Virus record (IMG/VR): IMGVR_UViG_3300042914_003341
Strand: one strand, 5' to 3'
Length of the DNA: 64,000 nucleotides
Origin: an uncultured virus (IMG/VR IMGVR_UViG_3300042914_003341)
Lineage: Duplodnaviria; Heunggongvirae; Uroviricota; Caudoviricetes
Part shown: positions 9,849 to 43,681 of the stretch, piece by piece
Position numbering within the stretch: the stretch's first letter is position 1
Layout: every line of letters begins with the position of its first letter
Position numbers and translations under genes: made by a program
The notes under the pieces: model-generated
Databases searched by the model: none
The model's input: the letters and a program-made list of their open reading frames with translations, nothing else
What the model was told of the DNA's origin: nothing

Positions 9849-10105
9849 TGAATGATCGCTGGCGCATCGTCCGGACCACGACCGTTCTTTGCGGCAAAAG
9901 CCTGAGATAGATCAAATCCCACAGACAAACCTTTCCTGCTGTCCTCATAGTCATCCGGCCGGTCATCATCAATTCTCATCCATTCCCAGTATTCCTGCTC
10001 TCCTTGCTCAGAGAGCCAATCAAGGAAAGCATCTCTGGTTTTCTGTGATGGAAACCTGAACAACAAATCTTTGTTGTCTAAGACATAGATTGAAGATGAT
10101 GTCAT
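9836..10105 (-). CDS. hypothetical phage protein
   Basis: AFLDWLSEQGEQEYWEW; start 6 nt after -10 box. Confidence 0.7.
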   Translation of the reverse strand: MTSSSIYVLDNKDLLFRFPSQKTRDAFLDWLSEQGEQEYWEWMRIDDDRPDDYEDSRKGLSVGFDLSQAFAAKNGRGPDDAPAIIQCDL

Positions 10106-13157: not shown

Positions 13158-13751
13158 CTAAATTCTGTCTCCGAACCGCTTGGGTTTCGGATTGTGAACA
13201 TAAAGAACCTTTGAGAGCTCTGTCATTCGTTGCAGTTGTTTGTGTTTCAAACCTGCACGTGGTGCCGTTGCTAGGTGATAGCGGCCAAGCGGCGTCATCT
13301 CTGTGATGTCATCCAAGACCAGGAGATGTTTTGGTTTCTCCTGTAGGCTGTCTAGACATTTCCAGATTGCTTCTGGCCGCGAACACTCACGTTTGCTGCA
13401 AGAACCTCCCCACACAGTTGGGGTTGAAAGAGTTTCCCAGTAAGGCGTTGCACCAACTAGTTTGCCTCGCAACCCCGACCTTGTCAAAACATCTACTGTC
13501 ACATCAAAACCCGGATTGTTCCTCCAACTTGAAGACAAGACAATGTTTGCCGCAAAACTAGGATTCTGGTCCAACCATTCATTCAGAAAACCCAGACAGG
13601 TTTGACTGATGAACTTGATTGGATCATTGACGTGGCCAGAGAATTCTTTGGTGAAAGGCGACAAAACCCCATCGACGTCAAGCATCAACAGGGTTTCGCT
13701 CCGGAAGGTGGGTGGAAGTTCGTGTGTGCTGGCTGTTAGGTGTTCAGTCAT
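13158..13751 (-). CDS. HAD-family phosphatase (Swiss Army Knife RNA-repair type)
   Basis: LDVDGVL, IVLSSSWR, LVLDD. Confidence 0.85.
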   Translation of the reverse strand: MTEHLTASTHELPPTFRSETLLMLDVDGVLSPFTKEFSGHVNDPIKFISQTCLGFLNEWLDQNPSFAANIVLSSSWRNNPGFDVTVDVLTRSGLRGKLVGATPYWETLSTPTVWGGSCSKRECSRPEAIWKCLDSLQEKPKHLLVLDDITEMTPLGRYHLATAPRAGLKHKQLQRMTELSKVLYVHNPKPKRFGDRI

Positions 13752-13760
13752 AACAACCAG

Positions 13761-13789
13761 ACACTAGCATCAGTCTTCGACGGTGTCAA
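13761..13789 (-). promoter_or_regulatory. sigma70-type promoter, near-leaderless
   Basis: TTGACA-17-TAGTGT with extended TG; ATG 9 nt downstream. Confidence 0.65.
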
Positions 13790-15401
13790 GGACGCGAGCA
13801 ACAAACAGGTTGATGTTTGTAGCAGGATTGTTCGCGACCGGTGTTGCCGCGACTGTTCCGCCATTGGCAAACTCTGACACAACATCGAAGTACGCATCAG
13901 AGAATCCACCAATGTTCAGAACCTTTCCAGCCTGATCCGGCGCTTGCGTGGTCGAACCAGCCGCAAGATCAATGCAAACAAGTCGTGCGTTGGGAACTTT
14001 CAGAGCCAGCTTGTACTGGTTCCAAACATTGATCAGAGTGCTGGCGCGATATGAACCATTGCACCATGATTCATTGTCACTGATCAATACCAGAGTATCA
14101 ACAGCGACCTTGTCAGCAATCATCTTCCGCACTGCCGCAGCACAGTCAGTTCCACCACCATTTGCACCAATCTTCTGTGCATTGGTCAGGACAGTGTCAC
14201 GAGGCTCCAGCTTCACGCTCTGCGCAGCAGTATCGAAACGATACACCTTGGTCGCCACATTGCCGCGAACAATGCATGCAGCGATCAGTGCCGCCACGTT
14301 GTTGCAAGTGATCTTCGATGAAATCCCCTTCGAGTTGGTGCCGGTGACCGGCAAATTCATTGAGCCAGAAAAGTCAACCGCAACCGCAACCCGACCATTG
14401 ATCGGAGTCATGTTCTTGGTTGCAACCTCCATTGCGTCATGAAGTGCATCACGCACAGCCGCAGGCACATCATCCGATGTGTTCATGTAAGCAGCATAGA
14501 TCTGATAAGGCATTGCACGTGCCTTGCGAACAGCCTCCGGGTCACGGAGCTTCGCTGCGATCTGCTTGGTTGCCTCTGCATCATTGAAAACACCATGACG
14601 AGCCATTGTGTTCAGGTTGATGCGCAGGGCTTGCCACCCCATCTTCCCGGAAAGCTCAACCCGCTCCTTTGTTGAAAGATCCAGAGACTGGAGCATCATG
14701 TAAGGAACGTTCTCCGGAACAACACGCTGATCAGGCTTTCCAGTACGAAACTGGACGAGCTCAAACAGCGGCTTGGGAAGCTGGAACAGATCCACACGGT
14801 CCTCTTGACCAAGGAAATACCGGTACAGTTGGTTCCGGTTCTCATCCTGCGCACGAGGGTGCACGAGCTTCACAACGTCCTTGAGAGACATTCCTCCATC
14901 ATTGTTCCCGCCAACGAAATCCTCCATGATCTGACGATCATTCCGAGCATTGAGCCAGCCCTGGACCAGCTTCTTCGGCGCAGTCCCGAAAGACTTGCGA
15001 CCAGTAACACCAGAGCGCACAACCGCACAGAAGTTCCGGAGCTGCTTCCCGTTGTCAATCACCTTGGGAAATGCACGACGAAACCGACGAGCATCCTTGT
15101 TCATCAGGAATGCTAGAAGAACAACGGGAGTGTCCTTCATGTTGTTCTCGCGGGCATAGACCGCCAGACCCTCAAGGAATCGAGGCGAAACCTCGTTGAC
15201 CAGACGCTGGACGCGCGCAATCTGGTCCTGGCCAGACGTATAGAAACCGTCGTTGAAAGTCCCAGTCAGTGCCAGGTTTGCTAGATCTACCTCTGATTCC
15301 TTGCGATACGCAAGGCCACCAGCACTGTTGCTCGCGTTTGGCACTACCAGAGCAGGCTTGCGAGCAGAATGAGAAGACGAAGAAAATACGGTGTTGTTCA
15401 T
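13770..15401 (-). CDS. rsr: Ro60/Rsr RNA-binding protein (TROVE + vWA)
   Basis: NSAGGLAY, TGTFNDGFY, RSGVTGRKSFG, vWA MIDAS DFSGSM, ISDNESW, IGGFSD. Confidence 0.93.
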   Translation of the reverse strand: MNNTVFSSSSHSARKPALVVPNASNSAGGLAYRKESEVDLANLALTGTFNDGFYTSGQDQIARVQRLVNEVSPRFLEGLAVYARENNMKDTPVVLLAFLMNKDARRFRRAFPKVIDNGKQLRNFCAVVRSGVTGRKSFGTAPKKLVQGWLNARNDRQIMEDFVGGNNDGGMSLKDVVKLVHPRAQDENRNQLYRYFLGQEDRVDLFQLPKPLFELVQFRTGKPDQRVVPENVPYMMLQSLDLSTKERVELSGKMGWQALRINLNTMARHGVFNDAEATKQIAAKLRDPEAVRKARAMPYQIYAAYMNTSDDVPAAVRDALHDAMEVATKNMTPINGRVAVAVDFSGSMNLPVTGTNSKGISSKITCNNVAALIAACIVRGNVATKVYRFDTAAQSVKLEPRDTVLTNAQKIGANGGGTDCAAAVRKMIADKVAVDTLVLISDNESWCNGSYRASTLINVWNQYKLALKVPNARLVCIDLAAGSTTQAPDQAGKVLNIGGFSDAYFDVVSEFANGGTVAATPVANNPATNINLFVARVLDTVED

Positions 15402-22494: not shown

Positions 22495-22718
22495 TTTTGC
22501 AACATGTCCATCAGATCGATGATCCACCAACTATCACCCAGTTGACTATGTTTACCCGCAATCCACTCTGCGTTTGGTTTGCTGAGTGACAAACACAGCC
22601 CACTATACATTCCATTCTCAAATTCAGAAATACCAAGTGCATAGTTGAATTGACTGTCAATCTCACCAATTCTTTGCTGTGAGCTAACAACCACAGCTAG
22701 GGCGAGATAATCATCCAT
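22491..22718 (-). CDS. small protein, ELAD-motif family
   Basis: IIDLMDML; start uncertain. Confidence 0.5.
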   Translation of the reverse strand: MDDYLALAVVVSSQQRIGEIDSQFNYALGISEFENGMYSGLCLSLSKPNAEWIAGKHSQLGDSWWIIDLMDMLQK

Positions 22719-23266
22719 ACTGACTTTGACTCTGGGGCAATCGTCACAGGGTGTTTGAGTTTGTTGTTGCACTTGATCTGCTCAAGCATCCTTTGCAGGA
22801 GGTCAGCACCGCGCTGCATCCCAAGATACACCTCGCGACCTTTGAACTTGCAAACAACCTTGACCTCATGGCCTTCCTCTACGAACTCCTTGACCTTTGA
22901 TGCCTTGACGTTGAGGTCGTTGTCGTCAATGTTCGGCCTGACAATGATCTCTTTTTGTTCCAGAGGCTTCGAACGGCCCTTCTGTGCCTTCTTCTGGTCG
23001 AACAGGAACTTGCCATAGTCAATGATCTTGCAAAGGCTGCGAGGACGTGTCTGACTCGCTGAGTTGATCTCAACCAGATCCAAACCTGCTTCATTCGCCA
23101 TTCCCAGCGCAACTTGCTTCGAGATGTTCTGGTGGTGGTTTCCATCTTGGTCGACAACATCAAGGTATTGCTCCTGGATGTAACCATTGGTTCGATGACT
23201 GCGACCACCAGTGGAAGCCGATGGACGAACTGGAAGGCGAGAACCGTTTGCTGTTTTGTTTCCCAT
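22697..23266 (-). CDS. infC: translation initiation factor IF-3
   Basis: AGLDLVEI, CKIIDYGKFLFDQKK, KEIIVRPNIDDNDL, KVVCKFKGRE. Confidence 0.93.
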   Translation of the reverse strand: MGNKTANGSRLPVRPSASTGGRSHRTNGYIQEQYLDVVDQDGNHHQNISKQVALGMANEAGLDLVEINSASQTRPRSLCKIIDYGKFLFDQKKAQKGRSKPLEQKEIIVRPNIDDNDLNVKASKVKEFVEEGHEVKVVCKFKGREVYLGMQRGADLLQRMLEQIKCNNKLKHPVTIAPESKSVWMIISP

Positions 23267-23318
23267 ATGTGGTGTTTTTTACTTACTCGTTCCTAAAGGT
23301 TTGTGTGCGTGACGATTG

Positions 23319-23347
23319 ATAGTATCAGGTGCTTGAATGGCTGTCAA
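23319..23347 (-). promoter_or_regulatory. sigma70-type promoter for IF-3
   Basis: TTGACA-17-TACTAT with extended TG. Confidence 0.7.
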
Positions 23348-23353
23348 GGGTTG

Positions 23354-24436
23354 CTAGCAGGACACGAGAGTTTTTGCCGCGGAAATGGTGCTCAGAGGTA
23401 CTTTGAACGTTGGGCGTTTGAAAGATTCAGATTTGTCAGAGAAATATACCGGTTCTGAGGCAGAACCCAGCTCATCCTTCTCCCAGGTGACTTCAATCAC
23501 TGGTCCTTTGACCTCAGTTGCTATCCGACGTTGCTCATCGACGTTTGCTGACCATTGCACCGGTTTTGGCATGAAGACATCGCCATTCCTGTTTGGTGTG
23601 AGTTTGTTGAAGACCAGGGCAAGATGATCCTTGACCATGGTCGTCTGGAGTTCATTCAGCGCTGTTGGGTTTGCCATCTCAAAGAAACCTTGGAGCCAGT
23701 ACACGAACTGATCTGGTGTGATTGGCTGAGGTCTATTCTCTGGATGTTTTGCCGCCATTCTGTATGGATGATCAGCTCCCTTTGTCTTGCTGACCGCATT
23801 GGATTGATCAAACAAGTTCACGAACTTATGATCTGGGAACTTGTGCAGGATCTTGTCGACGTACTTGCCACGCTTGTAGTCGAATCCTGTCTTTGTCACA
23901 GTTTTATCAGCCATGTCCTTCAAGGCTCCAGGCTCCCCGGTGATCTTCTTTGTCACATGATTCCATGTGAACTTGGAGATCTCAACTGGAAATGACCCCA
24001 GGAGCTTTGACAGATCTGAGAACTCTGTCACAATCACTTGATATTTGATCCGATGAGCACCACTCAAGACAGATGATCGCCAGTCGATATGGCCGTCATA
24101 AACCCATTTGATCCCCGGGTTGCGATAGCCATAATCATCCGAATCGTCTGAGTATCGATCGCCCCGAGTTGCCTCTTTGACGTCAAAACCGGCTTCTCTG
24201 AGGGTGAACTCTAGTTGTGTCTTTGTGATCGTCGTGCCAATCAAGAAGATGTCAATGTCTGACGCTGGCTGCTGACGATACCATTCACGTGGAGCACCTC
24301 CAGCAACAACAGCTTCACGTGTCCATGGCAAATGACTGAGTGTTGACATCAGGTGATCTGTCGCAGCTTTCTGCGCCTTGATCAACTCTGCTGAGTCTTT
24401 TTGTTTGTGATAGTTTTTTAGTTCTGCTTTGTTCAC
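23354..24436 (-). CDS. Pol-beta-superfamily nucleotidyltransferase (CCA/poly(A)-like head) with extra C-terminal domain
   Basis: VAGGAPR...SDIDIF; GTG start overlapping upstream TGA; C-terminal TPDQFVYWLQGFFE segment. Confidence 0.75.
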   Translation of the reverse strand: MNKAELKNYHKQKDSAELIKAQKAATDHLMSTLSHLPWTREAVVAGGAPREWYRQQPASDIDIFLIGTTITKTQLEFTLREAGFDVKEATRGDRYSDDSDDYGYRNPGIKWVYDGHIDWRSSVLSGAHRIKYQVIVTEFSDLSKLLGSFPVEISKFTWNHVTKKITGEPGALKDMADKTVTKTGFDYKRGKYVDKILHKFPDHKFVNLFDQSNAVSKTKGADHPYRMAAKHPENRPQPITPDQFVYWLQGFFEMANPTALNELQTTMVKDHLALVFNKLTPNRNGDVFMPKPVQWSANVDEQRRIATEVKGPVIEVTWEKDELGSASEPVYFSDKSESFKRPTFKVPLSTISAAKTLVSC

Positions 24437-24867
24437 GTGCTTGTTGTTCCTTTTTCTTCTTCCTTCATCCTCTTCGCATCGAACTTGTCTTGATCTGCTT
24501 TGATAATAGCTTTGAACTCTTGCATCTGCTCCAGCAGGTTCCTGCCGCGAGCAACCAACATCCCTGCAAGATTTTTGTCGAGGAGCCATGGCTGGTGATA
24601 TTTCCAGGCAAAAGCGCTGTCAAACCCACAATCATGGCACCATAGCCTCTGGTGCCGACTGTACAATCCAGTGGTTTCTACCGGCTCAAAGTAATCATCA
24701 CCTCTGCGCATGTCCTTGTGACCACAGCGAGCCATGGCAAGCAACGCAGCGGCAATGGCCTCATACTGTGAATATGAAGAGTATCCATGACGTGCTAAAT
24801 CTACAGCATATCGATAAGCTTCTGTTTCCTTGTCAGCCTTCTTGCCGTCAGTGTTGTAGTCGCTCAT
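24433..24867 (-). CDS. hypothetical protein, possible Zn ribbon
   Basis: CGH...CHDCG. Confidence 0.6.
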   Translation of the reverse strand: MSDYNTDGKKADKETEAYRYAVDLARHGYSSYSQYEAIAAALLAMARCGHKDMRRGDDYFEPVETTGLYSRHQRLWCHDCGFDSAFAWKYHQPWLLDKNLAGMLVARGRNLLEQMQEFKAIIKADQDKFDAKRMKEEEKGTTST

Positions 24868-26973: not shown

Positions 26974-26992
26974 AGATGAAGAAAAAAAGGAG

Positions 26993-27189
26993 AGCGGGTC
27001 CAAGGAATTGAACCTTGATAGTCCATCGATGGAGGCAAGAGATTTTGGCCGCGAAACATGATCAGTGCTCGGAACAAAAACTCTTGTAATCAACCATCTA
27101 GCTGAATGCAGATCATTGATCAGATGACCTACACCGGCAGACCCTGCCAGATTGGACTCTGGCGGCATTAGCCAAAATGCGTGACCCGC
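26993..27189 (-). ncRNA. giant tRNA-like RNA (Gly-type acceptor, about 125-nt variable region)
   Basis: GCGGGTC/GACCCGC-T, D arm, GCCAG-AGTCCAAT-CTGGC arm, T arm CAAGG-TTCAATT-CCTTG. Confidence 0.75.
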
Positions 27190-27211
27190 GTGAAAAGAAA
27201 AACAAAGGTAG

Positions 27212-27327
27212 CTGGGACGATCGGAGTCGAACCGATAGAGGGGCCTCGCGGATACCCTGTCAGGTTTCGCCGCAAAACTATTCTTGCAGCTACCGACTGA
27301 CTTCTCTGTCCATTTGAATACATCCCA
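27212..27327 (-). ncRNA. tRNA-like RNA with about 33-nt anticodon loop and long variable arm
   Basis: TGGGATG/CGTCCCA, GTCAG/CTGAC stem, T arm ATCGG-TTCGACT-CCGAT. Confidence 0.7.
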
Positions 27328-27332
27328 GATAG

Positions 27333-27403
27333 AGCGTGTGACGAGACTCGAACTCGTAATCCGAGCTTGGAAGGCAGGGCTTTTACCATTAAATTACACA
27401 CGC
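27333..27403 (-). tRNA. tRNA-Gly(TCC)
   Basis: Loop CTTCCAA, U73; two anticodon-stem mismatches. Confidence 0.8.
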
Positions 27404-27458
27404 AAAGAAACCAAGGCAGTTAAGTCAAAGCTAAGGAAGAAGAAGAAAGAGATTGCTG

Positions 27459-27722
27459 TCAGAAAGTTCTCGTGACACATCCTCGCATGAACCCACAGCA
27501 GGCGTTCATCCGCACCTGACGACCGGCAGGGTTTGTTGCAGCGATGGTAAACTCCGTGTCATACCCCTTCCCGCAGAGATGAACGTAAGAAGTATCAACA
27601 ACCCTGACGTTGGAGAACCCCATGTCCTGGAAATGCTGAACTGCTGTGTCCTGGCTTGAGCAGGCAGTGGTAGCAGTTGAAGACAGAACCAGGAGCGCAA
27701 GAAGGCGTAGAGAGTTTCGCAT
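27459..27722 (-). CDS. small lipoprotein
   Basis: MRNSLRLLALLVLSSTATTA-C signal peptide and lipobox; Cys-rich C-terminus. Confidence 0.75.
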   Translation of the reverse strand: MRNSLRLLALLVLSSTATTACSSQDTAVQHFQDMGFSNVRVVDTSYVHLCGKGYDTEFTIAATNPAGRQVRMNACCGFMRGCVTRTF

Positions 27723-27760
27723 CGCTTTATATACCTTTCGTGAATGTTGTTGACCGACAG

Positions 27761-27846
27761 TAGGGCTGGAGGGATTTGCACCCCCAGTTGCGGTTTTGCC
27801 GCGTCCGATTTTGAGCCGGAAGTGTCTGCTGTTCCACCACAACCCC
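27761..27846 (-). tRNA. tRNA-Leu(CAA)
   Basis: Loop CTCAAAA, long variable arm. Confidence 0.88.
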
Positions 27847-27861
27847 AAACTTAACCAAACA

Positions 27862-28024
27862 TGGAGCGTGCCGCAGGAGTTGAACCCGCACAGGGAGGCC
27901 ACCCCTGTCTCTTGCCAGTGTTTCGATGGGCGAAACACCTCTGACCATCTTTGACTGAGAGAGTCATAGCTCTTTGGAGGGCGACTCCAGCTATTGGTAC
28001 TTCTCAGTCAGCAAGATAGCACGC
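27862..28024 (-). ncRNA. giant tRNA-like RNA (Gly-type acceptor, about 70-nt D arm)
   Basis: GCGTGCT/GGCACGC-T-CCA, T arm GCGGG-TTCAACT-CCTGC, long hairpin TGACTGAGA/TCTCAGTCA. Confidence 0.75.
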
Positions 28025-28060
28025 ATATTTTCTATCTCACGTTGCCTTGGAGACACTCAG

Positions 28061-28089
28061 ACTCTAGCACGAGGCTTCAAGGCTGTCAA
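28061..28089 (-). promoter_or_regulatory. sigma70-type promoter (RNA island)
   Basis: TTGACA-17-TAGAGT with extended TG. Confidence 0.7.
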
Positions 28090-28097
28090 GTGCAACG

Positions 28098-28352
28098 TCA
28101 AAGCTCTGAGTTCGCTGGCGCAATAATATCGCACAACTCGGTCAGGAACATGAGACGCTGCGGCCAATCATGGCTTGGCTCAGAAAACGAAGGATAAACT
28201 CTTTTAAGGAGGTGTGCATTGTGGCGGTCGGCGCTGCCAAAGCAATAATCAATCATGTCGGAAAGAAATGTCTCATTCAAAGGTATGGACGCCGCACCAA
28301 TTCGCTGGCCCAATTTCATGATCGAATCTTGACGTGCAGTGATGCAATCCAT
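28098..28352 (-). CDS. small protein, ELAD-motif family
   Basis: FLTELCDII; AGGAG upstream. Confidence 0.65.
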   Translation of the reverse strand: MDCITARQDSIMKLGQRIGAASIPLNETFLSDMIDYCFGSADRHNAHLLKRVYPSFSEPSHDWPQRLMFLTELCDIIAPANSEL

Positions 28353-28390
28353 TTGATTCTCCTTCTATATGATTGTTAGGTCATCAACAG

Positions 28391-28490
28391 TGGGTCGCCT
28401 AGGAATTGAACCTAGTTGCCTTCGACGGGCGGTGCGTTTCCAAGAAACTTCGTTTTGCAGCGCACTGTTCAGCCATTGAACCTCCGACCC
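28391..28490 (-). ncRNA. tRNA-like RNA with 24-nt anticodon loop (begins CT-GCA-A) and long variable arm
   Basis: GTGCG/CGCAC stem, D arm GTTCA/TGAAC, T arm CTAGG-TTCAATT-CCTAG. Confidence 0.7.
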
Positions 28491-28509
28491 CAAACAAGAA
28501 GAAACATAG

Positions 28510-28581
28510 TGGAGAATAGCGGTTATGCTCCGCTCATCCCTGTGTGCAAGACAGGAGTTTTCCTGAATAAACTAATTCCCC
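28510..28581 (-). tRNA. tRNA-Ala(TGC)
   Basis: G3:U70, loop CTTGCAC, atypical T-loop AGCATAA. Confidence 0.8.
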
Positions 28582-28625
28582 AAACACAAACTACAAGGCA
28601 TGAAGGTTCTGCGGCAAAAACAAGT

Positions 28626-28810: not shown

Positions 28811-28831
28811 TAAGAAACAATAAGGCAAAGT

Positions 28832-28919
28832 TGGGAGTTTGCGAGGAATCGAACCTCTTGAGGTAGCTAACCACACCCGGTGTGCCCGAGCCGCAGATAT
28901 CCTTTCTGCCAACAAACTC
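28832..28919 (-). ncRNA. atypical tRNA-like RNA (8-bp acceptor, 4-bp T stem)
   Basis: GAGTTTGT/GCAAACTC-CCA, GAGG-TTCGATT-CCTC, 5-bp D stem; anticodon ambiguous. Confidence 0.65.
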
Positions 28920-29192: not shown

Positions 29193-29268
29193 TATGACGA
29201 CAACGCAAGGCATTTCCTGTAGAGCGTGCATATTTTCAAGATGTATTCTACAAGGATCATTCGTCATA
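29193..29268 (-). ncRNA. Y RNA-like stem-loop 2
   Basis: TATGACGAATG...TACATC...TTGTCGTCATA. Confidence 0.75.
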
Positions 29269-29449: not shown

Positions 29450-29514
29450 GTGACGACAAACAAGTTCTATAGAAGCTTACAATTTCGAATGTATTCTACA
29501 GATTCATTCGTCAC
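29450..29514 (-). ncRNA. Y RNA-like stem-loop 4
   Basis: GTGACGAATG...TACATT...TTGTCGTCAC. Confidence 0.75.
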
Positions 29515-29568
29515 GTGATACTTGATGAGATGCTCTTCTTCTTTTCTTCTTCGCTCCTGACACCTTAG

Positions 29569-29597
29569 AGACTATCAGAGGCTGGGAAGGTTGTCAA
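29569..29597 (-). promoter_or_regulatory. sigma70-type promoter (RNA island)
   Basis: TTGACA-17-TAGTCT, one mismatch from the Ro60 promoter. Confidence 0.75.
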
Positions 29598-29615
29598 GTG
29601 CAGCGTCAAGGCAGT

Positions 29616-29720: not shown

Positions 29721-29798
29721 TGCGGCGACAACTAGAAGGCAACCATGGTGTTGTTTATTCTGTATGATGGATGTAAACACCTTGGTACATTCGCCGCG
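29721..29798 (-). ncRNA. Y RNA-like stem-loop 5
   Basis: GCGGCGAATG...TACATC...TTGTCGCCGC. Confidence 0.75.
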
Positions 29799-29831
29799 AA
29801 AACCTAAATCACATTCAAACTATTATCTTAG

Positions 29832-29929
29832 CCCCAGAGCCTAGGTTCGAACTAGGATTGTCTGGCTTCATGCCAGTCGTAATACCTCACAGCTTTCGCC
29901 TTGTGTTGCACTGTTTATACTACCCCAGG
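29832..29929 (-). ncRNA. tRNA-like RNA with hairpin inserted in D loop
   Basis: T arm CCTAG-TTCGAAC-CTAGG; anticodon arm CTGGC-ATGAA-GCCAG. Confidence 0.65.
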
Positions 29930-30090: not shown

Positions 30091-30107
30091 CTGGCTTGCG
30101 GCCATTG

Positions 30108-30211
30108 TGTACAGTACCAGACTCGAACTGATCTCTCAGGCTTTCATGCCTGTGTTTTTACCATTCAGCTTCGTGCTAGCCCTAGTCACTGAACTTGAAA
30201 ACTAACTGCAC
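30108..30211 (-). ncRNA. tRNA-like RNA with hairpin inserted in D loop (paralogue of 29832..29929)
   Basis: GTGCAGT/ACTGTAC; CAGGC-ATGAAA-GCCTG; ATCAG-TTCGAGT-CTGGT. Confidence 0.7.
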
Positions 30212-30948: not shown

Positions 30949-30997
30949 AAAACTAAGGTAAGATAAGATATTATCGAGGCTTGCGAGGCATGATCAG

Positions 30998-31026
30998 AAT
31001 CTAGCATGAGGCAGAAGGCTTGTCAA
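30998..31026 (-). promoter_or_regulatory. sigma70-type promoter (RNA island)
   Basis: TTGACA-17-TAGATT with extended TG. Confidence 0.7.
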
Positions 31027-31052
31027 GTGGAGCGTCAAGAGGCGGGGTAAGT

Positions 31053-31155
31053 GATGATTGTTTCGGTGAGATTTGCACTCACAACACAGGCTTTCGCTCT
31101 AGGGATGGTGGCACCAACTTGCCTTCTCTGTTTGGACTTGCGAAACACAATCATC
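31053..31155 (-). ncRNA. structured RNA with T arm and long terminal stem
   Basis: GATGAT..TGTTTCG/CGAAACA-ATCATC; GTGAG-TGCAAAT-CTCAC. Confidence 0.55.
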
Positions 31156-31157
31156 GG

Positions 31158-31298
31158 TGGGATCAGAAGGAGTTGCACCTTCATCTGTGATTTGCGTTTT
31201 ACCGTTAAACTATCCTAAAACCACCATGACAGTAGGTACTAGGAGGCGTTTCGAAACGCCAACTCGGTTGCACACTCTACTAGTTGAGTTATGATCCC
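31158..31298 (-). ncRNA. double-bodied tRNA-like RNA (permuted T-acceptor-D module in place of the anticodon loop)
   Basis: Outer GGGATCA/TGATCCC with D and T arms; inner GGCGT-TTCGAA-ACGCC, TCCTA/TAGGA, GTTT-AACGGTA-AAAC. Confidence 0.7.
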
Positions 31299-31837: not shown

Positions 31838-31866
31838 GTTGTATCAGGTGCTGGGGAGGTTGTCAA
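31838..31866 (-). promoter_or_regulatory. sigma70-type promoter heading the RNA island
   Basis: TTGACA-17-TACAAC; downstream sequence shared with 4869-4893. Confidence 0.7.
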
Positions 31867-32299
31867 GTGGTGGTGTTGGTAGCTTGTTCTCAAGGGTTTC
31901 GCGGCGATCCTTTTCAACCTTGGTTGTGTTAATGGGAATGAAGACAATCACTCCATCAAACTGAACGTTCTTGAACTTTGCTCCAATGAAACCGTTTGAG
32001 ATCACCAGGGAGAACAGTTTGTCCATGTCAATGAAGGTGCCGCGATCTGCTTGGACCTTAAGCTTGAGAGGATCTGAAACGAGGTCATAGATCTTAGAAT
32101 CATCCACTGTTGCAGAGAACAGATCCTTGGAGTTGTCGAACCAAACCTCACGTTGCTGGGGATTGAGATAGAAGAAGGTGCGTGGAGTCCCTGCCGCATT
32201 CTTCTCTCGCTTGGAGAATGGGTTTGCGCCAAAATACTTGACGCAGTCGAGCAGGAGCTCGGTTGCATCTGTCTTGTTGGTGTAGTGGAACAGCTCCAT
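31844..32299 (-). CDS. hypothetical protein, possible ART-like fold
   Basis: N-terminal LFHYT and PRTFFY strands. Confidence 0.5.
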   Translation of the reverse strand: MELFHYTNKTDATELLLDCVKYFGANPFSKREKNAAGTPRTFFYLNPQQREVWFDNSKDLFSATVDDSKIYDLVSDPLKLKVQADRGTFIDMDKLFSLVISNGFIGAKFKNVQFDGVIVFIPINTTKVEKDRRETLENKLPTPPLDNLPST

Positions 32300-36128: not shown

Positions 36129-36866
36129 CTAGCCATACACAGGATCAAACACGCACACTGAGCCATCGGATGGTCTGATTCCGATATTATCTCTTGATAT
36201 ATCCAGAGCAGCACGTAGGTCGACGGGGTGGCGTGCTTGTGTTACCTCTGTGAGAACTTCAACAAAACGATCAAAGTCTTGTTCAGTCCAATGCAATAGT
36301 TCCAGATCTTGTTGTTTGATCATCTCACCATACACGCGTCGCATGACCCCGCCATTTATCGCGCCAATTGAATCTACCCCACGTCGGACATTGTCTAGAT
36401 TAGATAAACCAACCTTTGTGATCGTGTCCACATACTCCAGCACACACATCGTCACTGTTTCATTGACCAGTTTTATGTCTGTGTTCAAGTAATAAACATC
36501 AGGCAGTGCCGCACTATAGCTCCTGCCGCCAAGCTTCTTGCACAGCTTCAGATATTTCCAAGACATATCAGAGTCTTGGTATTTCTTGCTGAGTTTGATG
36601 ACACACTCAACTTGGCTAGCACCATCAAAGTTGATGTAAGCTTTCGCAAAGGATCCGCTGTATTCTTTGGTGTTAGCTTCAACCATCTGAAGCGCTTCCT
36701 CAAGCGCAGTACGATCGACATCGGACAATTTAACTGTTGTTGATCGATCAGGAGTTGGCAGAAAACCAGCATCTATCATATTCAAGATATTCATTGCCAT
36801 GTCCTTTTTTTCTGCGAAAAGGAGTTTTTGCAACGAAACAGCATTTATGTTGCTAGCTGTTTTCAT
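36129..36866 (-). CDS. protein kinase-like, paralogue 1
   Basis: SGSFAKA, CVIK, LPDVY, DISRDNIG, VFDP. Confidence 0.75.
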   Translation of the reverse strand: MKTASNINAVSLQKLLFAEKKDMAMNILNMIDAGFLPTPDRSTTVKLSDVDRTALEEALQMVEANTKEYSGSFAKAYINFDGASQVECVIKLSKKYQDSDMSWKYLKLCKKLGGRSYSAALPDVYYLNTDIKLVNETVTMCVLEYVDTITKVGLSNLDNVRRGVDSIGAINGGVMRRVYGEMIKQQDLELLHWTEQDFDRFVEVLTEVTQARHPVDLRAALDISRDNIGIRPSDGSVCVFDPVYG

Positions 36867-37594
36867 CAGAAGTTATAGCTCAGTGGATCGAACACGCACA
36901 GAGAACCATCCTCTCGAAAACCAAAGTTTCCCGCGTGGACGTCAATGGAACCTCCGACATCTCTCAAAGATTGAATGAATTTTGCGAGATCAGTAGAATC
37001 CCACTTGTACACAGCCAGTTTTTGTTCGATAGAATCTCTTTGAGGTTTCTTCAAACCATAAACTTCTCCGCGCATGTTCAAATCAATGATCTGTTTGTAG
37101 CTAGATTCTGCAAAACTATCGAGTAAGCTGTCTAGAAACGTTTCATGCCGTGAACTAGTCTCCACATTCACAAACTCAATCACGGCGATTTCCACCTTTT
37201 CATTATCTTTCAGGTGAGCCGTGCCCATCCAGTAAACATCTGGGAATGCGGCGCAGTAGTTCCTGCCGCCATGATCCATGCAATACTTCAAGTATTTCAT
37301 TCCTTGATCGATGTTTGGATCTGCAATCTGGACCTTGATCACGCACTCTACTGGGCCACTCCCAAAGTCAATCAGTGCAGCACTAAAGGCGCCACGTTTC
37401 TCCTTGAGGCGCAGGCTGTTTGCTGCGAAGCTTAGATTCTCAATGAAATCGTCAACTTCCATTTTTGAGATCTGTTGAAGACCATCTTCTCGTGGCGTAG
37501 GCAGCGCACCAAGTTCAATCATCCGGATCAAGTCCATGGCTTGCTTCTTCTTCTCGTTCAGGTATAATACGTCTTTGAGTTTCATCATCGTCAT
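36866..37594 (-). CDS. protein kinase-like, paralogue 2
   Basis: RGAFSAA, CVIK, FPDVY, DVHAGNFG, VFDP. Confidence 0.8.
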   Translation of the reverse strand: MTMMKLKDVLYLNEKKKQAMDLIRMIELGALPTPREDGLQQISKMEVDDFIENLSFAANSLRLKEKRGAFSAALIDFGSGPVECVIKVQIADPNIDQGMKYLKYCMDHGGRNYCAAFPDVYWMGTAHLKDNEKVEIAVIEFVNVETSSRHETFLDSLLDSFAESSYKQIIDLNMRGEVYGLKKPQRDSIEQKLAVYKWDSTDLAKFIQSLRDVGGSIDVHAGNFGFREDGSLCVFDPLSYNF

Positions 37595-37599
37595 GACAT

Positions 37600-38349
37600 T
37601 CAGAAATCTTTCATTCCAAGCGGATCAAACACACAGAGCGAGCCATCAGATCTCCAGCCGGAGTTTGTTCCTTCGCTCAAGTCAAACAGCTCAACACCAT
37701 CAGTCAGTTCTAGAATAACTGTTGAAAACTTCACTAAGTCTTCGTAAGACCAATGCCATGTTTGCAACGCCTCCTGCACCACAGGGTCAGAACTAATGTT
37801 GGTTTTTGTTTTGATCGCTGCGAAAGCCTTCTCCAGAACACGCTCCAACCCTCTGCCGGTGTGTCTGTCTCTGGTCACAGCAACAAACTCCATCACACAA
37901 ACTGGGAGTTGAGTATTGTTTGCGAGCTCAAGCGTGTTGAGATAGTAGATGTCCGGGAATGGAGTGCAAGAGCTCCTGCCGCCGAGCTCTTGCACCATTG
38001 CAGCGTAATTCCAGAAGTAGTCGTTCTTCCACGTTCTGTGTTTTGGAAATTCCACTCCCATATCGTTGAATGGATATCCAAACTTGATCACTGTCTCCAA
38101 ACTCCCAGCCCCAAGATCAACCATGGCTGTCGAGAAATAACCGCCAAAACCTTTGATCGTGTCTAAACCTGTCAGAGTGGTGAACAGCCTGTGGAAATCT
38201 TCTAGTGAGAGATACTTCAACTCAACTCTCTGGCCGTTCTTTGTCGTGAGATAACCGGCTTCTAACTGAGCCAGGATGCTCATTGCTTGTTCTTTTCTCT
38301 CACGGAACAGGATCGATGACAGCGTTGCATGCATGGTCTTTGAACTCAC
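37600..38349 (-). CDS. protein kinase-like, paralogue 3
   Basis: GGYFSTA, TVIK, FPDIY, DLSEGTNSG, VFDP. Confidence 0.75.
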   Translation of the reverse strand: MSSKTMHATLSSILFRERKEQAMSILAQLEAGYLTTKNGQRVELKYLSLEDFHRLFTTLTGLDTIKGFGGYFSTAMVDLGAGSLETVIKFGYPFNDMGVEFPKHRTWKNDYFWNYAAMVQELGGRSSCTPFPDIYYLNTLELANNTQLPVCVMEFVAVTRDRHTGRGLERVLEKAFAAIKTKTNISSDPVVQEALQTWHWSYEDLVKFSTVILELTDGVELFDLSEGTNSGWRSDGSLCVFDPLGMKDF

Positions 38350-39074
38350 TGACTTAGCGGATCAAACACACAGACAGTGTTGTCGCTTCTCAAGCCCAGA
38401 TTGTCTCGTTTGATATCGGTAGAACCACCAACCACACCCAACGACATTACAAACCTAGCTAGATCTTGAACAGTCCAGCCAAGTATTGCTAGTAAGTGTT
38501 GCCTTTCATTCGCAGTCGACTCAATTGCCTTGAGTTCTGCTGCGACCTGATGCGCATCGTTCCAGTCCAAACCCCATCGATCGTACGTGGCAGCTAACAA
38601 AGTGTTGATCTTCGAAGACAGAACACTGCCTTGAGAATTCTTGAGGACATTGACAAACTCAATCACTGCAATATCAACATCTCTGTCTCGCGTCTTCACA
38701 TTGCCAAGGTAATAAACGTCTGGGAAAGCAGCACAATAGCTCCTGCCACCTTTCTCTTTGCAGTAGGTGAGATAGTCAAAGGCTTTGTCGCCTTCATACT
38801 CGCCAATCCCAACTTTGATCACACATTCCACAGGACCATTCCCAAAGTCAATCATGGCAGTAGAGAAGGCGCCTGAGTATTTTTCCAGGCTAGTTGTTTT
38901 TGCGGCTCTACCAAGAAGATACAGAAACTCTTCCGAGTGAATATCCTCGATTCGCCTCATCTCGTTTGGATTTGCAACGCTTGGCAAAACTCCAAGCTCG
39001 ATCATCTTCATCAGGTTCATTGCGCGGTCTTTGCGCTCAGAGAGGAACAAGAGATCGGAAAGTTTTAGTCTCAT
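38346..39074 (-). CDS. protein kinase-like, paralogue 4
   Basis: SGAFSTA, CVIK, FPDVY, DIKRDNLG, VFDP. Confidence 0.78.
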   Translation of the reverse strand: MRLKLSDLLFLSERKDRAMNLMKMIELGVLPSVANPNEMRRIEDIHSEEFLYLLGRAAKTTSLEKYSGAFSTAMIDFGNGPVECVIKVGIGEYEGDKAFDYLTYCKEKGGRSYCAAFPDVYYLGNVKTRDRDVDIAVIEFVNVLKNSQGSVLSSKINTLLAATYDRWGLDWNDAHQVAAELKAIESTANERQHLLAILGWTVQDLARFVMSLGVVGGSTDIKRDNLGLRSDNTVCVFDPLSQ

Positions 39075-39100
39075 GTTGTTAGTGAAGGTAACTACGACTC

Positions 39101-39868
39101 TTAGACCGCTGACAAATATTTGTTCGGGATCGAACCATACACAATCACAGTGTCATAGTCAATCCCGGAATCCGAGATCTCATGGTCCAAATCAACACCA
39201 AGCATGCTGGATATCGCGCCAATTAATTGGTGCTCTAGGATTTCTGGTTCTTCCGACACAAATGGCATGTAGTTGTCACGTTTCATTGCTAGTGTATCAA
39301 TCTTCACTATGTCTCCATAACTCTGCGCAATTTCATCGTTGGATGTAGTGAACACAGCGTCACCAACATGTTTGTTGTTCAAACCGCGTGTTTCACTCCG
39401 CGGCTCAATGCCCGTTGCAAGGACAGAATCAATATCACTGCTGCCATGATAAAGAATCGGCGGGGAAGACCAGAACTCTTGGTTGAATTTGAGCTCATGG
39501 TCTTCTTCGAAGAACGAGTGCAAGTCATCGTGCATCGTGATGTTGCTAATGAATTCTTCAGGTCTTTCACCATCTTGAACCATGCCATTTGCAATGTCAT
39601 GCACAAGAGTCTTGCGCGCACTTGCTGTTACATAAACTTTCTTGCTGGGAGTGAAAACAACTTTGCGAAAAGAAAACACACCCGGGTTTAGACGTGCTTG
39701 TTCTCTGGCTAGCCGCAAAAACTCGACCTCTTGCAGCTCTAGCTCATCGCTCAAAGCGTAGTACAATGGCCATTTTGTGCTGGTTTCGGCAGAACTGCCA
39801 GCAATTCCATCCATCGGCAAATTCAACTGCTGAGAGTTTTCAAACAATAAAGTTGCAAGATCGATCAT
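39101..39868 (-). CDS. ADP-ribosyltransferase/KptA(Tpt1)-fold protein
   Basis: LYHGS..I...GIEPR, AVFTT, AQSYG, SIPNKYL. Confidence 0.6.
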   Translation of the reverse strand: MIDLATLLFENSQQLNLPMDGIAGSSAETSTKWPLYYALSDELELQEVEFLRLAREQARLNPGVFSFRKVVFTPSKKVYVTASARKTLVHDIANGMVQDGERPEEFISNITMHDDLHSFFEEDHELKFNQEFWSSPPILYHGSSDIDSVLATGIEPRSETRGLNNKHVGDAVFTTSNDEIAQSYGDIVKIDTLAMKRDNYMPFVSEEPEILEHQLIGAISSMLGVDLDHEISDSGIDYDTVIVYGSIPNKYLSAV

Positions 39869-39938
39869 GGCAATGATACGACTAACTATCCAGCCAGCAA
39901 CTCATCAGGCGGGGCTGGCATACAAGCCAACTGTTTGG

Positions 39939-40823
39939 TCACAGTGAGGCTCTCAAGGTTTTGTAGAAACTATCAGCGTCAACATTGGCTGGCAACCCAG
40001 CAGTACAACCATCATTCAACTCAACAACAATCCACTCGCCATTGGTTGTCATTGCAACGTCGATCACATAAAATCTCAGATCATCGACCAACGATTTGTG
40101 AGGGTCCAGTTTGGCGATTGTTTTAGGAATGATGTCGTCGAGAAAAGACATGTCTGCTGATTGATCAATGTTCTCAGGCCAGTAGTGCCCTGCGGCGATC
40201 ACTTTGCCGTCGAGGACAAACACTCGATATTCTTCTGACACTGGGCAACACTCTGGAAATTGGTCGTTGATCAGTCTATTCAAGAGAACATGAGGACGAA
40301 CCACAACATCTTCTGGGGAGTGACCGGCGGCAAAGAGATTTGCGGCAATCGCCTTTGTTTCTTCAAAGTTCTTGGCAAACATGTGACTCGACCAACGCTC
40401 CTTCATCGACTTCTCTCTGGTTTTCAGAACGAAACCACCAGAGATTGGCCATGGGCATGCTTTGAGCGCTAGGTTTGTGTTAGAACCCATCTGCATCATC
40501 AGAAACTGATTCCATGGATAACTCCACGGTGTCAGATCAGGTCCAAGATCCTCTTGATATGACAAGATATCGCGGAGATAGTTTGTGGCGTGTTTGCCGT
40601 TGATTGGCACGCATCCTGATTCAACAATGTCGTCGATGACTTCGTTGTGATGCGGCCACAGAAAGAACCTGGGAATCACCAGAGTTTCTTCTGGGTATTG
40701 AACTAGTTTGGTTCTGAGGTCTAGGACGTCAAACCCATTTGATTGGATGGCGGTCAGTTCTTCGGTCTGCTCGACCTTAGAAATAACACCTTTACGAAAC
40801 AATACGATTGGTGTGTTGCTCAT
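39939..40823 (-). CDS. ATP-grasp protein (R2K/DUF4343-like)
   Basis: FVLKTREKSMK, EYRVFVLDG, YVIDVA, WIVVELNDG. Confidence 0.85.
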   Translation of the reverse strand: MSNTPIVLFRKGVISKVEQTEELTAIQSNGFDVLDLRTKLVQYPEETLVIPRFFLWPHHNEVIDDIVESGCVPINGKHATNYLRDILSYQEDLGPDLTPWSYPWNQFLMMQMGSNTNLALKACPWPISGGFVLKTREKSMKERWSSHMFAKNFEETKAIAANLFAAGHSPEDVVVRPHVLLNRLINDQFPECCPVSEEYRVFVLDGKVIAAGHYWPENIDQSADMSFLDDIIPKTIAKLDPHKSLVDDLRFYVIDVAMTTNGEWIVVELNDGCTAGLPANVDADSFYKTLRASL

Positions 40824-41257
40824 TCTTTCATGAGCTTATCACTTCCATCATCGTCTGTCAAAGCAGCGGCCAGACTATAGAATGTTGCGCTCACGATATT
40901 CACCGCAAGAACGCTTTTGAAAGCGAATGTTGTCAACCAGATCGGCCCCGACAGACCAATCAGTTTGAAAAGGATCACCCATCCAAGCGCGGCAAATGCC
41001 ATCATCAAGATTTCGAAGAAAACAGCGAGACGCCAAAAGATCATGGTTGGTTTACCAGCAGCCCAGGTGTGTCCGGAACGTTCCAAGATTTTTTCTGATT
41101 CCCCTTCACCAAGCAACTCATCAATAAATGCAACAAGGTTTTTGTCAAACTTCGCACGTGTGTTTGGGTAGAAGAAAAGAATCCATACAGTCAGTGCGAA
41201 CGTTGCGATCAGCAGGCGCATGAAAACGTTTGCAAGAAAAACTTTGATCAGTTTCAT
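40820..41257 (-). CDS. membrane protein
   Basis: Three hydrophobic helices. Confidence 0.7.
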   Translation of the reverse strand: MKLIKVFLANVFMRLLIATFALTVWILFFYPNTRAKFDKNLVAFIDELLGEGESEKILERSGHTWAAGKPTMIFWRLAVFFEILMMAFAALGWVILFKLIGLSGPIWLTTFAFKSVLAVNIVSATFYSLAAALTDDDGSDKLMKE

Positions 41258-41285
41258 TCAATACTTTCTTTATGGCGTGGAAATG

Positions 41286-41314
41286 AAAGACAAACGGGGC
41301 TTGAAAGCCCCGTT
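41286..41314 (-). terminator. intrinsic terminator
   Basis: AACGGGGC-TTTCAA-GCCCCGTT followed by TGTCTTT. Confidence 0.7.
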
Positions 41315-41345
41315 GTGTTCTAGTTGGTTTTATTCCTGGAGATTA

Positions 41346-42098
41346 TCAACCAACCGACTGGATCGAAGGAGGTACAACGGGGCCAAGCACACCCGTAGCG
41401 CGGAGGAATGTTTGCAGAGTGTTATTGGTTTGTAGGTTGGATGGAGTGGTCGTGCGTGCTAGTGCTTGAAGTGAAGCAACCAGATCAGCCGACTCGCGAG
41501 TGTTCGCCTCGACAGAAACAGCGTTGAGCTTCCGACGTGCTGCACGAACCAGACCTCCTGGAAGGTCGAGATTCTGGAAGTATTCGATGACATCGTCGGC
41601 CAGATCAAGAACTGGCCCTTGCTCTCCCTCGGCCAGATAACCATCAAACCGATCATCCAGATCAGAGTCGAACTCGATCACGCTTTGGAGAATCGCCTTG
41701 AGTACATCAAAAGCATTTGGACGCTCTTGATCGACAGTGCAATCGTTCAGGAGCTCCAGGTTGACCCGCAGCGCATGCTGTGCACGCGTGAGGAACTGCA
41801 CTCCATCACTGGTCTGGTCGACTGACTTCGACGAGAAAACCTGCATGATCTTGTCCTGCTCCTCGGCACGACGGTTCGCACGGCCCTCTGCGATGGTGCG
41901 GCCCTGTGACTTCCGAAAAGTATCACCGTTGCGGCCAGAGCAGAAGCTGGTGCCAATGAAAAGGTCAGAACCCTTACGGACAGTGGCAATGCAGCCAACC
42001 AGCCGGTTCTTTGAGTCTGCGAGGTAGAGGTAATGGACCCCGCGAGTGCTGGGGTGCTGGTGAGTAGTAGAAGGCGCCTGTGTTTGTGTGTTGCTCAT
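41346..42098 (-). CDS. hypothetical phage protein
   Basis: SFCS..DTFRKSQGRTIAEGRA motif of a kind seen in small phage domains. Confidence 0.7.
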   Translation of the reverse strand: MSNTQTQAPSTTHQHPSTRGVHYLYLADSKNRLVGCIATVRKGSDLFIGTSFCSGRNGDTFRKSQGRTIAEGRANRRAEEQDKIMQVFSSKSVDQTSDGVQFLTRAQHALRVNLELLNDCTVDQERPNAFDVLKAILQSVIEFDSDLDDRFDGYLAEGEQGPVLDLADDVIEYFQNLDLPGGLVRAARRKLNAVSVEANTRESADLVASLQALARTTTPSNLQTNNTLQTFLRATGVLGPVVPPSIQSVG

Positions 42099-42131
42099 GA
42101 TGTGTCTGTATCAGATCCTTTCTTGAGATCC

Positions 42132-42160
42132 ACACTAGCAGACGACCAGAGCCTTGTCAA
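42132..42160 (-). promoter_or_regulatory. sigma70-type promoter
   Basis: TTGACA-17-TAGTGT with extended TG. Confidence 0.7.
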
Positions 42161-42168
42161 GTGGAGCG

Positions 42169-42807: not shown

Positions 42808-42832
42808 GGGTCTGTGTCCTTTAACAACGATG

Positions 42833-43678: not shown

Positions 43679-43681
43679 ATA

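Follow-up and report, generated by a model that had tools for sequence, protein, structure and literature searches.

The subject of this analysis is a gene for a 163-nt tRNA-like RNA in a 64,000-nucleotide stretch of DNA (hereafter the window; IMG/VR record IMGVR_UViG_3300042914_003341) assigned to an uncultured virus of the Caudoviricetes. The gene content of the window is that of a large phage, with many small open reading frames (ORFs) on the same strand, and its source DNA is present in public lake-water and freshwater metagenome runs. The RNA gene lies in an array on the minus strand in which ARAGORN recognises 14 tRNAs and Rfam 16, and an encoded CCA is also seen in several of these tRNAs. 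It is the first RNA gene after a predicted promoter at 28089-28061 and heads one tRNA operon, in agreement with a first-pass annotation of this sequence that had placed it first after a promoter at 28061-28089. A diverged relative of the phage is represented by a 6.8-kb contig from run X7 (the X7 relative), which covers the whole compared stretch. Positions in the RNA (p) follow from window coordinates as p = 28025 - window coordinate. The features at the head of the operon, and the further copies of its promoter repeat, are as follows:

27862..28024, minus strand: the 163-nt tRNA-like RNA gene (sequence; fold z = -3.5; scan for T arm, acceptor and CCA; full length in the X7 relative)
28061..28089, minus strand: promoter TTGACA-17-TAGAGT (promoter scan and repeat-family membership)
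28025..28054, minus strand: predicted 5' leader of ~30 nt (distance from the -10 box to RNA position 1; removal by RNase P presumed)
27760..27846, minus strand: tRNA-Leu(CAA) (ARAGORN/Rfam), 15 nt downstream of the 163-nt RNA
28057-28101, 29565-29609 and 30994-31038, minus strand: promoter repeat copies, type D2 (repeat search of the array)
31842-31869, minus strand: promoter repeat copy, type D13 (same search)

The promoter is sigma-70-like, with 10 of 12 matches in the scan and a TG before the -10 box. The scan taken alone is weak, as it returned one site against 0.9 expected from shuffles; stronger support for a promoter comes from membership in a four-copy repeat of 28-45 nt (TTGACG.TGCAC-TTGACA-N17-TAGAGT..., minus strand), which outweighs the scan match. 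With its four copies this repeat splits the tRNA array into operons. In the copy that precedes the 163-nt RNA, the X7 relative has 15 nt duplicated at the -35 region. Downstream, the tRNA-Leu(CAA) gene is presumably co-transcribed with the 163-nt RNA, and the scan found no terminator-like site between the two. Two further differences of the relative lie in this part of the operon: 92 extra letters stand within the 15-nt spacer between the 163-nt RNA and tRNA-Leu (window 27851-27853), and 115 letters replace 30 inside tRNA-Gly(UCC) (window 27365-27396).

From its 5' to its 3' end the 163-nt RNA is built from the following parts:

28018..28024, minus strand: 5' strand of the acceptor stem, GCGUGCU (RNA 1-7), pairing with 27866-27872
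28011..28015, minus strand: 5' strand of a D-stem-like helix, CUUGC (RNA 10-14), part of the minimum free energy (MFE) structure
27953..28010, minus strand: hairpin H1, 58 nt (RNA 15-72), with helices UGACUGAGA/UCUCAGUCA, AUAGCU/AGCUAU and GGAG/CUCC (sequence and fold)
27939..27952, minus strand: single-stranded linker AAAGAUGGUCAGAG (RNA 73-86) with a D-loop-like core A-G-A-U-G-G-U-C-A, unpaired in the MFE structure
27917..27938, minus strand: hairpin H2 (RNA 87-108), GGUGUUUCG-CCCAU-CGAAACACU (sequence and fold)
27911..27915, minus strand: 3' strand of the D-stem-like helix, GCAAG (RNA 110-114), part of the MFE structure
27890..27908, minus strand: hairpin H3 (RNA 117-135), ACAGGGG-UGGCC-UCCCUGU, in the position of an anticodon arm or a long variable arm (sequence and fold)
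27873..27889, minus strand: T arm GCGGG-UUCAACU-CCUGC (RNA 136-152) (sequence and T-arm scan)
27862..27872, minus strand: 3' strand of the acceptor stem, GGCACGC, followed by U73 and an encoded CCA (RNA 153-163) (sequence; scan for T arm, acceptor and CCA)

The two ends of the molecule are those of a tRNA. The acceptor stem GCGUGCU/GGCACGC consists of six Watson-Crick pairs and a U7.G pair, giving the full complement of a 7-bp stem, a discriminator base and a 3' CCA, and the T arm has a 5-bp stem and a 7-nt loop of the UUCRANN type that directly abuts the 3' strand of the acceptor. The D arm of a tRNA (a 3-4-bp stem and a 7-11-nt loop) is not found, the helix 10-14/110-114 enclosing 95 nt instead. 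The whole RNA folds with an MFE of -68.4 kcal/mol, a value that not one of 200 shuffles reaches (z = -3.5). By our own estimate, chance alone would give a 7-bp closure containing no more than one G.U pair within 400 nt of a T arm in roughly 10% of cases, and the case for the RNA rests on its combined features together with conservation in the relative. An alternative 77-nt reading of 27938-27862 was rejected; its acceptor is weak (six of seven pairs, three of them G.U) and it is supported by no tRNA finder.

All elements of the anatomy described in the first-pass annotation were recovered. The Gly-type acceptor with U73-CCA is present on the minus strand (28024..27862), and the hairpin with the CCCAU loop is present as H2 (GUGUUUCG-CCCAU-CGAAACAC), which has 9 bp including one G.U pair where 8 bp had been given. 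The helices of the nested hairpin proposed as a giant D arm are all there, but the AUCUU/AAGAU helix closing it is one of two near-isoenergetic options: the closure CUUGC(10-14)/GCAAG(110-114) belongs to the -68.4 kcal/mol structure, whereas AUCUU/AAGAU yields -67.6 kcal/mol, 0.8 worse. Likewise, a 7-bp hairpin (H3) does stand directly 5' of the T arm, where a long variable arm had been seen, and it aligns with the variable arm of the phage tRNA-Ser; its position is that of either an anticodon arm or a long variable arm. The CUUGC/GCAAG closure encloses both H1 and H2 and leaves the D-loop-like AGAUGGUCA unpaired. The proposed giant D arm is broadly right; judged on the folding model, the better-supported register is that of a D-stem-like helix with two inserted hairpins flanking a D-loop-like core. 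Because this core is similar to D-loops found in the tRNAs of the phage itself, such as that of tRNA-Ser (AGUGGUCUA), it could conceivably join the canonical T loop in an elbow like that of a tRNA.

As far as its sequence tells, the 163-nt RNA is not a decoding tRNA, and the earlier proposal that it is unable to decode is borne out. Neither ARAGORN nor Rfam calls it, even at E<=10. One module alone combines a 5-bp stem with a 7-nt loop whose second base is U, namely H3 in the register CAGGG-GUGGCCU-CCCUG (118-134), and reading it as an anticodon arm (loop GUGGCCU) puts a C at position 37; an anticodon arm with U33, a purine at 37 and detection by a tRNA finder is not present. Excision of the extra hairpins did not recover a tRNA either. 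Single excisions comprised every stretch whose removal leaves 70-95 nt, and double excisions two stretches around H1 and H2; at its default threshold ARAGORN found a tRNA in none of the 1,443 single-excision and none of the 15,400 double-excision variants. Relaxed thresholds produced calls of discordant identity (Phe, Ala, Thr, His, Pro, Leu) as cloverleaves with mismatched stems.

The X7 relative allows this structure to be viewed against the divergence of its surroundings. Across 27853-28589 the relative differs by 46 substitutions in 737 nt (6.2%) and 32 gap letters, and a further 20 substitutions fall in 27396-27851. It keeps the 163-nt RNA at full length and without insertions or deletions, including every extra hairpin. 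Five substitutions are listed in the RNA, all within positions 6-45: C6>U turns an acceptor C-G pair into U.G and keeps the pairing, U9>G lies at a junction or in a terminal pair of the MFE model, C28>A and A30>G lie in a weakly paired internal-loop region of H1, and C45>U lies in the terminal loop of H1. On the folding model all five fall at unpaired or wobble-tolerant sites and would be structurally tolerable. Among the substitutions listed, none falls in H2 or anywhere else in positions 46-163, where ~6-7 would be expected at the rate of the flanks (Poisson P ~0.002, our own estimate). Covariation is not demonstrable from a single relative at this distance. Runs X4-X6 provided identical short fragments only.

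Searches beyond this relative were made at the level of the RNA, the array and the neighbouring proteins. A covariance search had been suggested as a check on the RNA. Scanning model R1 over 30 loci and the whole record of Myxococcus phage Mx1 returned nothing above tRNA level, the scan leaving out loci shorter than ~2.2 kb (L008, L012, L014, L017-L020, L025, L031, L032, L034, L038, L039, L041, L044 and L046). An exact 28-mer had 0 matches in viral contigs, blastn of the array against phage records gave tRNA-sized matches only, and tblastn with the phosphoesterase gave no match. The neighbouring proteins had partial-domain matches or none in viral contigs, and the relatives returned by protein search were 85-89% (P0002-P0004) or 45-65% (P0005-P0012) identical. 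A profile of the phage nucleotidyltransferase matched 38 metagenome-contig loci and two genome-contig loci, none a close relative; identity is 25-30% where a match spans most of the domain, and higher figures belong to short segments. No description of the 163-nt RNA was found within the limited set of literature searched.

The acceptor end of the RNA is of the glycine type. Table 1 of PMC9976931 lists U73, G1-C72, C2-G71, G3-C70, C35 and C36 as bacterial glycine determinants, and all four of those in the acceptor (G1-C72, C2-G71, G3-C70 and U73) are present in the 163-nt RNA. The tRNA-Gly(UCC) encoded by the phage itself has the identical first five acceptor base pairs and U73. For C35 and C36 the RNA offers no canonical loop; the loops CCCAU and UGGCC do contain CC, to which no tRNA numbering can be assigned. 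From its acceptor sequence, charging of the 163-nt RNA with glycine is possible. According to PMC9976931, recognition of glycyl-tRNA-Gly by the toxin TacT is specified by U73 and G71. It is a long shot, in our estimation, that the RNA is a genuine substrate of glycyl-tRNA synthetase (GlyRS) and that the glycylated mimic would act as a decoy for factors aimed at tRNA-Gly acceptor ends (e.g. acetyltransferase toxins of the TacT type) or as a glycyl donor outside translation. A TacT-type toxin would be a concrete target for such a decoy, and a speculative one; the roles proposed in the first-pass annotation, a glycyl donor or a sponge for EF-Tu or GlyRS, are speculation as well. The self-complementary GGCC of the UGGCC loop might also pair with a second copy of the RNA.

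We favour, with moderate confidence, the interpretation that the 163-nt RNA is under selection as a mimic of a tRNA top half that does not decode, comparable in kind to T4 rnaC and carrying an acceptor end of the glycine type. Transcription would start from the promoter at 28089-28061 and run through an operon comprising the 163-nt RNA, tRNA-Leu, a small lipoprotein gene, tRNA-Gly and more tRNA-shaped genes. The maturation proposed for this transcript follows the established bacterial tRNA maturation pathway. RNase P would cut at RNA position 1, and its cut at the 5' end of tRNA-Leu would free a 15-nt trailer that is then trimmed back to the encoded CCA. The mature RNA would keep the 12-bp acceptor/T minihelix, the canonical T loop and a probable D-loop-like partner; the D-loop would carry the two inserted hairpins of 58 and 22 nt, and a 7-bp hairpin with a UGGCC loop would replace the anticodon arm. 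Such a molecule would offer what enzymes reading the top half of a tRNA need, together with the glycine acceptor set, and nothing for the decoding site of the ribosome. Its action would most likely be exerted via proteins that bind acceptor ends, as a substrate, decoy or sponge, and the candidate partners are GlyRS, the CCA-adding enzyme, EF-Tu and host toxins aimed at tRNA-Gly acceptor ends.

The 163-nt RNA is not the only oversized element of the array. A scan for a T arm with a 7-bp closing stem yielded further elements of 200, 144, 119, 107, 103, 101 and 89 nt:

26990-27189, minus strand: 200-nt element with a normal D arm and a CCA-containing anticodon loop of 6 nt (or 8 nt)
27209-27327, minus strand: 119-nt element, read by ARAGORN with introns as tRNA-Phe(GAA) with a 26-nt intron
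28388-28490, minus strand: 103-nt Cys-like gene (Rfam tRNA, 30.5 bits) with the anticodon loop CUGCAAA plus 17 extra bases
28831-28919, minus strand: 89-nt element (tRNA-shape scan)
29829-29929, minus strand: 101-nt element (tRNA-shape scan)
30105-30211, minus strand: 107-nt element (tRNA-shape scan)
31155-31298, minus strand: 144-nt element (tRNA-shape scan)

The 200-nt element carries a structured insert of ~125 nt at the position of the variable arm and folds with z = -5.1. In the 103-nt gene, the X7 relative is without exactly the 17 extra bases, which results in a normal Cys(GCA) loop; from the sequence, this insertion appears intron-like, occupies a position compatible with 37/38 and varies between close relatives. 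Together the elements of 200, 144, 119, 107, 101 and 89 nt would supply amino acids absent from the 14 standard tRNAs.

The phage also encodes a set of proteins for RNA repair and translation, among them a Ro60 protein (TROVE and vWA_Ro60 domains) at 13770-15401, 12.5 kb from the 163-nt RNA. These genes and three hairpins of possible relevance to Ro60 are located as follows:

795-1697, 13158-15401 and 22697-24589, minus strand: RNA-repair/translation gene set (domain searches)
29722-29797, minus strand: Y-RNA-like hairpin, between tRNAs of the array
29450-29514, minus strand: Y-RNA-like hairpin, between tRNAs of the array
29194-29267, minus strand: Y-RNA-like hairpin, between tRNAs of the array

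The members of the gene set are a Thg1-like protein, a HAD_SAK_2 protein adjoining Ro60, an IF3 homologue and a nucleotidyltransferase. The HAD_SAK_2 protein is an RNA-repair domain protein, and a carbamoyltransferase is also encoded in the window. Relatives of the nucleotidyltransferase have a common GGAPRD...DID motif, which we take to resemble that of class II CCA-adding enzymes. Elsewhere in the window (36129-44548, minus strand), about ten consecutive ORFs of 210-294 aa follow one another, with an ATP-grasp R2K domain at 39939-40823 as their single Pfam match.

The three hairpins carry GNCGAAUG in a 7-bp terminal helix, the partner strand following UUGU as in the YrlA consensus, and the helices read GCGGCGA/UCGCCGC, GUGACGA/UCGUCAC and AUGACGA/UCGUCAU. 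Shuffles predict 0.01 occurrences of this compound Y-RNA signature in the window, which contains three; the hairpins have no tRNA-like domain and no Rfam match. Based on the signature they are likely partners of the phage Ro60. The GNCGAAN0-1G motif, which the three hairpins contain, does not occur in the 163-nt RNA, and Rfam model RF02553 (YrlA) does not match that RNA at E<=10; because of this, and because the three array hairpins carry the signature, Ro60 probably has partners other than the 163-nt RNA.

Several observations weigh against a selected tRNA mimic and need to be considered alongside its rivals. Two of the five substitutions, at positions 9 and 28, affect bases that are paired in the MFE model, one in a terminal pair and the other in an isolated one. 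The lack of change in positions 46-163 is deduced from 10 listed substitutions out of 46, given in sorted order ending at 28098, and from per-piece totals, which indicate that the 35 unlisted rows lie beyond 28098, and the 5' 45 nt of the RNA change as fast as the flanks (5 of 45, 11%). Searches found no homologue beyond the one close relative, and no RNA sequencing run with a meaningful share of the sequence is listed, three presumed-RNA runs having 0.08-0.15 of its words. C35 and C36, which GlyRS also uses, cannot be placed in the RNA. The role of rnaC is itself unknown, so the analogy to it yields no mechanism. Finally, the oversized neighbours look like tRNAs disrupted by insertions and favour the main rival, according to which a tRNA gene, probably a copy of tRNA-Gly, has been swollen by insertions, is already dead or in decay, is transcribed by virtue of its operon position and is functionless. 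This rival gains from the presence in the array of at least five other tRNA-shaped genes with insertions (101, 103, 107, 119, 144 and 200 nt), from the changes seen in its neighbours in the X7 relative, where the 17-nt insertion of the Cys-like gene is absent and the 200-nt element has an acceptor-breaking change (26996), and from the rapid change of the 5' 45 nt. We nevertheless regard decay as unlikely, if deserving to be taken seriously: no change is listed in the 118 nt of the 3' part against ~6% in the flanks, the acceptor, T arm and CCA are perfect, the five changes present are structurally tolerable, the fold lies well beyond that of shuffles, and excising the extra hairpins recovers no tRNA. 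Its place as first element after the promoter and its intact acceptor/T minihelix would also suit an RNA that is only a processing signal, i.e. a tRNA-like handle for the RNase P cut at the 5' end of the operon transcript with no later role. This is highly doubtful, since the normal tRNA-Leu 15 nt downstream would already provide a processing site, a minihelix would suffice for it and yet ~110 nt of extra structure are kept unchanged in the relative, and cutting needs neither the encoded CCA nor the full glycine identity set.

Two further readings draw on other genes of this phage. The RNA could be an intron-bearing tRNA that is spliced into a decoder by a phage or host activity, like the tRNAs with 'enigmatic introns' described by Devoto et al. 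2019 (PMC6784885) for Lak megaphages. That published precedent is joined within this array by the 119-nt neighbour with its predicted 26-nt intron and by the 17-nt insertion in the Cys-like gene, whose absence from the relative restores CUGCAAA, and the phage does encode RNA-repair genes. Splicing of the 163-nt RNA is very improbable all the same: no single or double excision gives a tRNA at the default threshold, relaxed calls have poor stems and are discordant in identity, the window yielded neither a splicing endonuclease nor RtcB, and the relative keeps every extra hairpin. Alternatively, the RNA might be a YrlA-like Y RNA that partners the phage Ro60 and whose topology is un-permuted, its termini lying at the acceptor stem. 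Apart from the Ro60 gene itself, this possibility is encouraged by a YrlA-like RNA that lies between two tRNA-Pro genes in phage Mx1, and Chen et al. 2014 (PMC4201824) report that YrlA-type Y RNAs mimic tRNA and that YrlA of M. smegmatis is cut by RNase P and gains CCA. The only Ro-helix-like pairing that could be proposed, CUUG[G]CUGAC with GUCAGAGG, was rejected, as it folds at -55.5 rather than -68.4 kcal/mol (13 worse) and the motif is missing; with neither motif nor YrlA match in the 163 nt, and three full-signature hairpins available in the same array, the 163-nt RNA is probably not Ro60's partner, and we consider this reading the most far-fetched of those discussed. The selected, non-decoding mimic of a tRNA top half remains the interpretation that we prefer.

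Small stable RNAs that are partial tRNAs have been known in phage tRNA clusters since T4 species 1 RNA, and their roles are unexplained. The 163-nt RNA is an unusually clean instance, with a perfect acceptor/T minihelix, an encoded CCA, the full glycine acceptor set and a probable elbow, and this clean anatomy makes the question of charging directly testable with standard enzymes. Its locus is a compact collection of tRNA oddities, including Ro60 and three Y-like hairpins, strain-variable tRNA insertions and genes for Thg1-like, nucleotidyltransferase and IF3 proteins, and it could serve as a model of the way in which phages run a tRNA pool of their own and protect it.

By its Ro60, the nearest named relative of the phage is Myxococcus phage Mx1 (40% identity over 95% of the protein). 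In both phages a phosphoesterase gene is embedded in a large array of tRNA genes, and Ro60 lies downstream. The YrlA-like RNA of Mx1 (L006) is located at 8249-8377, exactly between the two tRNA-Pro genes; it scores 32 bits over the full model length, the Rfam cut-off being 69. The array of Mx1 also contains a tmRNA at 9726-10103 (117.7 bits, ARAGORN tag VNTNVFGSQMMAAA) that is not annotated as an RNA in its record, and ARAGORN finds 38 genes in Mx1, more than the tRNAs given in the record. YrlA (RF02553), as described in PMC4201824, resembles the 163-nt RNA in its T arm and acceptor-like stem and in its occurrence in Ro60-bearing genomes, phages included. However, the termini of YrlA lie in the Ro-binding stem and its acceptor hairpin is closed, and the 163-nt RNA has the opposite topology. 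Lak tRNAs (PMC6784885) resemble the oversized neighbours, whose insertions are likewise present or absent between close relatives; they differ from the 163-nt RNA in that removal of the insert gives a recognisable tRNA.

Compared with a bacterial tRNA-Gly, the 163-nt RNA has U73, G1-C72, C2-G71 and G3-C70 but lacks a canonical D arm and an anticodon loop, and C35/C36 cannot be placed in it. We take it to resemble the non-proteinogenic tRNA-Gly of staphylococcal cell-wall synthesis. With the tRNA-like domain of tmRNA it shares an acceptor with CCA, a T arm, extra domains and the lack of anticodon decoding; tmRNA is aminoacylated and has G3.U70, whereas the 163-nt RNA has G3-C70 and is half the size. 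An identity as tmRNA was rejected on account of this pair and of the absence of a tmRNA call by ARAGORN or Rfam, and an informal look by eye found no evident tag reading frame in the 163 nt.

A search of viral contigs for the same architecture (the same acceptor letters and T loop with 118-148 nt between them) gave two matches. The match in L047 consists of two adjacent tRNA-like units. The second match belongs to an unrelated IMG/VR contig:

L048, 1501-1660, plus strand: 160-nt RNA in a viral tRNA region (architecture pattern)

This RNA has an 8-bp Gly-type acceptor (GCGUGUGU/ACACACGC), U73, CCA, a T arm and two large arms, and folds with z = -2.7. The design is common to both RNAs, with no sequence similarity beyond the ends, and the L048 RNA is an analogue rather than a relative.

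The closest known counterpart is T4 rnaC (species 1 RNA, 139 nt; NC_000866 70908-71046), which folds with z = -4.6. Its canonical T arm (CCGGG-UUCGAAU-CCCGG) leads directly into a 3' strand whose closure on the 5' end is imperfect, and the RNA contains hairpins of ~60 and ~26 nt. We take rnaC to be matured by RNase P. Each of the two RNAs is part of a phage tRNA cluster and shares its strand, and no terminator-like site precedes the tRNA downstream of the 163-nt RNA; both are strongly structured, combine a T arm with a terminal closure helix around two unequal hairpins, and do not decode. PMC3014915 describes the role of T4 RNAC and RNAD as unknown. Because model R1 scores rnaC no better than the T4 tRNAs (10 bits), with no homology in sequence or model, the likeness is one of design, not descent. 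The closure of rnaC has five of seven pairs in our reading and no encoded CCA follows it, whereas the 163-nt RNA possesses a full 7-bp stem, the glycine identity set, an encoded CCA and a position at the head of its operon.

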